A stretch of 64,000 nt of DNA from the NCBI RefSeq assembly GCF_056712565.1, contig NZ_CM160072.1. The stretch is one strand, 5' to 3'. Numbering within the stretch: the stretch's first letter is position 1; each line of letters opens with the position of its first letter. The notes beneath the pieces were generated by a model. That model made no database searches. It saw only the letters and a list, made by a program, of their open reading frames with translations, and was not told the origin of the DNA. The position numbers and the translations under genes are program-made. Positions 26,830 to 27,311 of the stretch are shown here, one piece after another.

Positions 26830-27008
26830 CCCGCCACCTTTTTCTAACCTTTTGCCGCTATGATGCCGATCGTTTCTTGAGGTTATTATTCAGTTTTGCA
26901 AATTAGAGCAAAGAAATTCTGGAATCTTCCTTCCTGATTTTGCATTGCATTCTGCCGTTGCGGCGATTTAGTGCTATTTTCGAGCACATTACACACGGAG
27001 GTAAACTT

Positions 27009-27233
27009 CGCCATTAAATAGTCACGATCACTTTATTGAAGTGCCTTTGAGCGTCGCCTCTAAGGTATTGCTGTTTACAGTCAGAAATCACTCAGCAAGA
27101 GTTAGCCCGGCGAATTGGCAAACATAAACAGGAGATTACTCGCCTATTTAATTTGCACCATGCGACAAAAATCGACGCCGTCCAGCTCGCGGCTAATGCG
27201 CTTGGCAAAGAGTTATCGCTGGTGATGGTTTGA
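27009..27233 (+). pseudogene. hicB: hicB antitoxin gene remnant (N-terminal part and hicA missing; internal frameshift)
   Basis: Frames read ...SPLNSHDHFIEVPLSVASKVLL then a shift, then QEITRLFNLHHATKIDAVQLAANALGKELSLVMV*; these match internal and C-terminal HicB segments as I recall them, but are not in one frame and have no start codon. Confidence 0.5.
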
Positions 27234-27311
27234 TTACAGTTAATGAAAAGTTGTCATTTTTAACAACTGATATAGACTGCCGAATCATCTGCACATAATT
27301 ACGATTCGATA

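Follow-up and report, generated by a model that had tools for sequence, protein, structure and literature searches.

What is left of the hicAB toxin–antitoxin operon between yncJ and ydcR, and was the operon lost from this site or never present there? The sequence analyzed, hereafter the window, is a 64-kb stretch of Escherichia coli DNA. A preliminary description of it had read the yncJ–ydcR interval as the decayed remainder of a hicAB locus. Our analysis leads to the interpretation, to which we assign a probability of about 0.93, that the interval is a non-functional relic of a hicAB type II operon, resulting from an ancestral 445-bp deletion in the B2 lineage and a later, private 11-bp deletion.

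Layout and coding capacity of the yncJ–ydcR interval

Positions 26830–27311 constitute the entire spacer between intact yncJ and ydcR. The hicB-derived portion, which corresponds to HicB residues S61–V138, lies at 27008–27233. The region is organized as follows.

26599–26829, minus strand: yncJ, the left neighbor, 76 aa, DUF2554/YncJ family (ORF, and annotation in the near-identical UM146 and HS13-1)
26830–27006, plus strand: retained yncJ–hicA intergenic region, the first 176–177 bp of the 221-bp K-12 spacer (alignments)
27005–27007, no strand: 445-bp deletion junction, with K-12 locus L001 1207–1651 gone (alignment and in silico joining)
27008–27073, plus strand: hicB remnant segment A, codons S61–L82, the end of the N-terminal domain and the linker (tblastn, translation)
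27073–27077, no strand: 11-bp deletion junction, with TTAAATGCTTT gone and the frame shifted (alignment)
27075–27233, plus strand: hicB remnant segment B, codons L87–V138 and a TGA stop (translation, Pfam HTH_3)
27234–27311, plus strand: hicB–ydcR spacer, nearly K-12-like, with three base differences over the aligned span (alignment)
27312–28718, plus strand: ydcR, the right neighbor, intact, 468 aa, a PLP-dependent aminotransferase-like regulator (ORF and annotations)

Outside the interval, a REP-like palindromic element is found at window 26559–26595, between rlhA and the 3′ end of yncJ. An Rfam scan of 26300–27500 places no family on the remnant. Its sole match is to this REP-related element (naRNA4), which is sub-threshold, with 25 bits where the gathering score is 59.5.

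Upon translation, the peptide ...TSPLNSHDHFIEVPLSVASKVLLF... appears in one frame, and ...LQSEITQQELARRIGKHKQEITRLFNLHHATKIDAVQLAANALGKELSLVMV, ending at a stop codon, appears in another. A tblastn search of the whole window with K-12 HicB returns two collinear segments with a joint E of 1.3e-32, one covering residues 61–83 at 27008–27076 and the other residues 85–138 at 27069–27230, at 93–96 percent identity. The HicB match in the window is far beyond chance, bearing out the initial claim that only HicB-like segments in two frames lie between yncJ and ydcR. With K-12 HicA as the query, the whole 64 kb yields only hits at unrelated positions, the best of them with an E of 0.24. In K-12 HicB, the toxin-binding Pfam domain HicB_lk_antitox spans residues 3–67 and HTH_3 spans residues 88–134. 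The leftover HicB piece yields no HicB-family match in Pfam, whereas its HTH_3 signal (E = 2.2e-08) reaches 33 bits against the Pfam cut-off of 23. Alignment, tblastn, and Pfam thus agree with the preliminary description that neither hicA nor the HicB N-terminus is present.

A functional module carries the hicA toxin gene directly upstream of hicB, and all of hicA falls within the 445-bp gap. It also encodes the partial RNase H-like domain (HicB_lk_antitox) at the N-terminus of HicB, for which codons 1–59 are deleted, and a C-terminal HTH in a translatable ORF, for which the HTH frame has no usable start. Structures of E. coli HicB have been solved (6HPB, 6HPC, and 6U0I). In the window, the 11-bp deletion splits segment B, which holds the HTH, from the reading frame of segment A, and an in-frame stop codon stands immediately before S61 in segment A. 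The only start codon in the frame of segment B is a TTG that opens a 26-aa ORF (27153–27233), and the ORF list contains none longer than 28 aa across the remnant. On this reading of the sequence, no toxin, antitoxin, or autoregulator can come from the window locus, and nothing functional is left.

The two deletions and their distribution

The window was aligned with K-12 (L001), the B2 strain UM146 (L002), and the near-identical HS13-1 (L004). The preliminary description had proposed an internal deletion that shifts the frame and a larger one that removed upstream sequence. Both are present in the alignments, where the window differs from K-12 by exactly two gaps, of 445 bp and 11 bp. The larger gap starts 45 bp upstream of the hicA GTG and takes these 45 bp, hicA, the hicA–hicB spacer, hicB codons 1–59, and the first base of codon 60, leaving the window without HicB residues 1–60. 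When the K-12 flanks are fused in silico across this gap, the product differs from the window by one SNP. The joint has a single ambiguous C, equivalent to 1 nt of microhomology, and contains no foreign DNA, which points to a clean illegitimate deletion without an insertion-sequence scar. Given the position of HicB_lk_antitox at residues 3–67, the deletion took the toxin and the toxin-neutralizing domain together.

Codons L83-N84-A85 are lost to the smaller deletion together with part of F86, and its ends share a 2-nt TT microhomology. The resulting frameshift falls immediately ahead of the HTH part. In a comparison with HS13-1 over 23 kb, three SNPs are observed, and the 11-bp gap is the only indel.

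What persists of the locus closely resembles K-12 hicAB (yncN–ydcQ), with which the remnant shares the yncJ–ydcR site. Conservation extends over 176 bp upstream and 78 bp downstream, and relative to K-12 hicB codons 61–138, the remnant carries only P103H and K127N, deleted residues aside. The hicA–hicB alignment with K-12 that the preliminary description had called for places both segments and recovers no intact hicAB from the interval.

The sequence at the breakpoints of the 445-bp deletion has some symmetry. Its left breakpoint sits in a perfect 7-bp inverted repeat, GTAAACA-ctaa-TGTTTAC (K-12 L001 1201–1219; window 27000–27006). In addition, GGTAAA, the six bases left of the deletion, is the reverse complement of TTTACC across the right breakpoint (K-12 L001 1647–1652), which comprises five deleted bases and the first retained base. 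This pairing could reflect a hairpin-assisted deletion or could be due to chance.

The 445-bp deletion is not specific to the window genome but is found in roughly one complete E. coli genome in five. An 80-nt query across its junction (…CACGGAGGTAAA/CTTCGCCATT…) has a full-length counterpart at 100 percent identity in about 1,100 of the 5,426 complete genomes, a count that is slightly too high because at least one of these hits comes in two pieces from an intact locus. The deleted 445-bp segment itself occurs in 4,256 complete genomes. Carriers of the junction include UTI89, CFT073, Nissle 1917, ABU 83972, S88, IHE3034, APEC O1, ATCC 25922, and the type strain DSM 30083, as well as an O25b:H4-ST131 carrier, all of them phylogroup B2 strains. 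The junction also occurs on 14 JGI metagenome contigs.

The distribution of the 11-bp deletion is very different. A 90-nt query across this junction finds it in 0 of 5,426 complete E. coli genomes. The best full-length match, at 90 percent, is to UM146, which has a separate 1-bp deletion, and the rest are at 89 percent or partial. The junction is likewise absent from the JGI metagenome contigs, including all 14 that carry the 445-bp junction. The recovery of these 14 contigs in a control scan makes the metagenome negative meaningful. The 11-bp deletion is therefore private to the window sequence, its origin being more probably a recent mutation than an assembly error.

PGAP labels the remnant as "hicB ... 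incomplete; missing N-terminus" in HS13-1 (C3K24_RS01130) and as "frameshifted; incomplete" in UM146 (UM146_RS10130). These B2 pseudogenes have the same 445-bp junction and flanks as the window. The UM146 copy differs in its 1-bp frameshift, located 8 bp from the break in the window, where the window instead has the 11-bp deletion. Homology, position, junction, and relaxed selection all fit, and the window locus belongs to this PGAP-annotated group of B2 hicB pseudogenes. Loss of hicAB in B2 has previously been described in a preprint. The remnant is thus already annotated and reported; only the 11-bp deletion is new, and it has no evident consequence.

The same module at the same locus has also decayed by another route. 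In this case, 22 bp between TGCG repeats are missing from hicA (located at L003 1252–1406 in 2014C-4135; K-12 L001 about 1370–1391), as is seen in ~886 of 5,426 complete genomes, a number taken from the 90–95 percent identity band in the search with the deleted segment. In this allele, the toxin is frameshifted and hicB is intact, giving an orphan antitoxin. It therefore keeps the full-length antitoxin and repressor, whereas both partners are destroyed in the window.

Loss of the operon and drift of the remnant

Toxin–antitoxin modules are often mobile and strain-variable (review PMC7167474, and general knowledge), and non-B2 E. coli might on this account have gained hicAB at the yncJ–ydcR site, with B2 retaining the ancestral empty state. 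However, the supposedly empty site holds 226 bp of hicB coding sequence that ends mid-codon at the junction, and an uninserted state cannot retain the 3′ end of the inserted gene. Insertion in non-B2 strains was rejected on the alignment of the remnant with the intact hicB 3′ end and on the shared downstream spacer. An outgroup agrees. Escherichia sp. E1V33, a separate species-level lineage, has the order rlhA–yncJ–hicA–hicB–ydcR with hicB intact, and its HicB is identical to K-12 HicB in protein sequence over the compared region. The presence of hicAB at the same site in E1V33 indicates that the module was there before the compared lineages split and that B2 lost it. The likelihood of an insertion is accordingly negligible, and the initial reading of module loss rather than insertion holds. 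E1V33 was the only locus returned by a scan with a degenerate HicB peptide pattern, one genome per species; the scan missed E. coli itself though the pattern fits E. coli hicB exactly, and it is silent on which species lack hicAB.

The hicA of E1V33 (L005 1569–1744) has its own 1-bp frameshift at RHP/CDE, a few bases from the start of the E. coli 22-bp deletion, and would represent a third independent inactivation of the toxin. In this region, hicA also overlaps with another ORF, which is read in a different frame. In the intact locus (K-12 L001 about 1213–1380), it is opened by a strong Shine-Dalgarno sequence, GGAGGT, and an ATG. In E1V33 (L005 1529–1744), the hicA frameshift joins it to the HicA C-terminus, creating a 71-aa ORF. 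The B2 deletion retains the GGAGGT and loses the ATG.

Substitutions in the remnant were compared with those in intact hicB over HicB residues 61–138. The three intact references (K-12, 2014C-4135, and E1V33) encode an identical protein over these residues, with eight synonymous and 0 non-synonymous differences, a tally that includes codons 79 and 112, assigned by hand. The remnant set comprises HS13-1 and eight distinct metagenome haplotypes, all bearing the deletion. It contains seven derived non-synonymous changes (K79N, E95G, G101S, P103H, A116V, K127N, and M137I) and three synonymous ones, and the stop codon of the remnant has changed from TAA to TGA. The ratios of non-synonymous to synonymous changes, 7:3 in the remnants and 0:8 in the intact genes, differ by Fisher's test with p = 0.004, a value that rests on few sites, treated as independent, and on three intact references.

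The remnants have also sustained three independent secondary deletions, of 1 bp (UM146), 11 bp (the window), and 144 bp (L019). L019 is the gut-metagenome E. coli contig OKFL01000507.1, in which the 144-bp deletion lies between AAGG repeats and removes most of the HTH-coding part. When this junction was queried against the complete genomes, the matches at the top of the list were two-piece matches from undeleted genomes. From the 7:3 excess together with the three independent deletions, we conclude that the hicB fragment drifts neutrally, and the pattern of changes is that expected of a remnant under relaxed constraint.

These observations allow us to propose a course of events. In an ancestor of the B2 lineage, a single 445-bp deletion brought hicB codon 60 next to a position 45 bp upstream of hicA, taking at once the gene for the HicA mRNA interferase and the HicB N-terminal domain that neutralizes HicA. 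It would also have removed the proximal promoter, P2, together with the right half of the putative operator (see below). An untranslatable 3′ fragment of hicB, consisting of the linker and the HTH, was left and has drifted neutrally. In the window strain, a slippage-type deletion of 11 bp then broke the frame of this fragment.

Two further explanations concern the remnant itself. The fragment could have been domesticated as a stand-alone HicB HTH regulator that starts at an internal GTG at V72 and binds DNA without a toxin. HS13-1 and most carriers of the 445-bp junction do keep the remnant in frame to its natural stop, a GTG-initiated ORF of 67 codons exists in most B2 genomes, the HTH_3 score is above the Pfam cut-off (33 versus 23 bits), and the upstream hicAB control region is partly kept. 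However, the in-frame form has a stop right before S61, and no Shine-Dalgarno sequence is seen before the GTG. The substitutions are near neutral at 7:3, four of them (E95G, G101S, P103H, and A116V) fall within the HTH region, and the remnant has been hit by three independent indels. Half of the putative operator palindrome is deleted, and after the 11-bp deletion, the window has only the 26-aa ORF. Domestication is consequently very improbable as compared to a dead relic.

It is less far-fetched, though still unlikely, that the 11-bp deletion is an assembly or sequencing error or a change acquired in the laboratory, such that the true sequence is the common in-frame B2 remnant. The deletion is seen in 0 of 5,426 complete genomes, where the best match to its junction is 90 percent, and it is absent from the JGI metagenome contigs; moreover, the window otherwise shows only 3 SNPs relative to HS13-1 over 23 kb. 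Against this explanation, the loss of 11 bp in non-repetitive sequence is atypical of base-calling error, and the TT microhomology is as expected from replication slippage. Private lesions of a comparable kind occur elsewhere (the 1-bp deletion of UM146 and the 144-bp deletion of L019), as a neutral pseudogene should show. Whether the 11-bp gap is real or an artefact, the locus is a dead remnant.

Regulatory context and significance

As presented in reviews of Turnbull & Gerdes (2017), K-12 hicAB has two promoters. Both hicA and hicB are expressed from the distal P1, which has a CRP-S site and is under activation by Sxy. HicB represses the proximal P2 through an inverted repeat, hicO, and the P2 transcript begins at the hicA ribosome-binding site. 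The repeat GTAAACA-ctaa-TGTTTAC is the only one seen upstream of K-12 hicA; it was found by eye and then checked, and a program search for inverted repeats upstream of K-12 hicA reported none. It is probably the HicB operator hicO. The deletion cuts this repeat, and the window keeps only GGTAAA(C), the left arm. If the repeat is hicO, the operator and P2 would be destroyed, and the 176 bp that remain may still contain P1.

The divergent yncJ promoter presumably lies in the left flank as well, and the flanks have probably persisted for the control regions of yncJ and ydcR. In the spacer at 27234–27311, a promoter scan based on consensus matches finds two weak sigma-70-like hexamer pairs. Terminator prediction gives no terminator-like site between the remnant and ydcR, which makes read-through into ydcR conceivable. 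It is a slender possibility, judged from the arrangement of the sequence, that the CRP/Sxy-dependent P1 might be fused to ydcR via the dead hicB fragment, or that the in-frame B2 remnant might encode a small orphan HTH protein. The former, if true, would place ydcR in B2 under competence and carbon-starvation control. The latter is excluded for the window by the 11-bp frameshift.

A second decayed locus lies ~9 kb downstream, at window 36404–36552 (context 35900–36900), between mnaT and pqqU. There, mcbR (yncC) is reduced to an internal fragment of 149 bp, flanked by two deletions relative to K-12, one of 1,332 bp (the 5′ part of mcbR along with most of curA) and one of 306 bp (inside mcbR). 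PGAP labels this fragment in HS13-1 as a GntR-family pseudogene.

The yncJ–ydcR locus of the window is of little importance except for its correct annotation. The 445-bp junction can conveniently serve as a marker of the B2 lineage, and the 11-bp deletion is a strain marker at most. The locus is nevertheless a clear example of a chromosomal toxin–antitoxin module dying, and three routes of decay can be seen at this one site in E. coli: frameshift of the toxin (~886 genomes), joint loss by the 445-bp deletion (~1,100 genomes), and stepwise erosion of what was left over. This pattern of decay agrees with the view of chromosomal hicAB as dispensable rather than strongly addictive.
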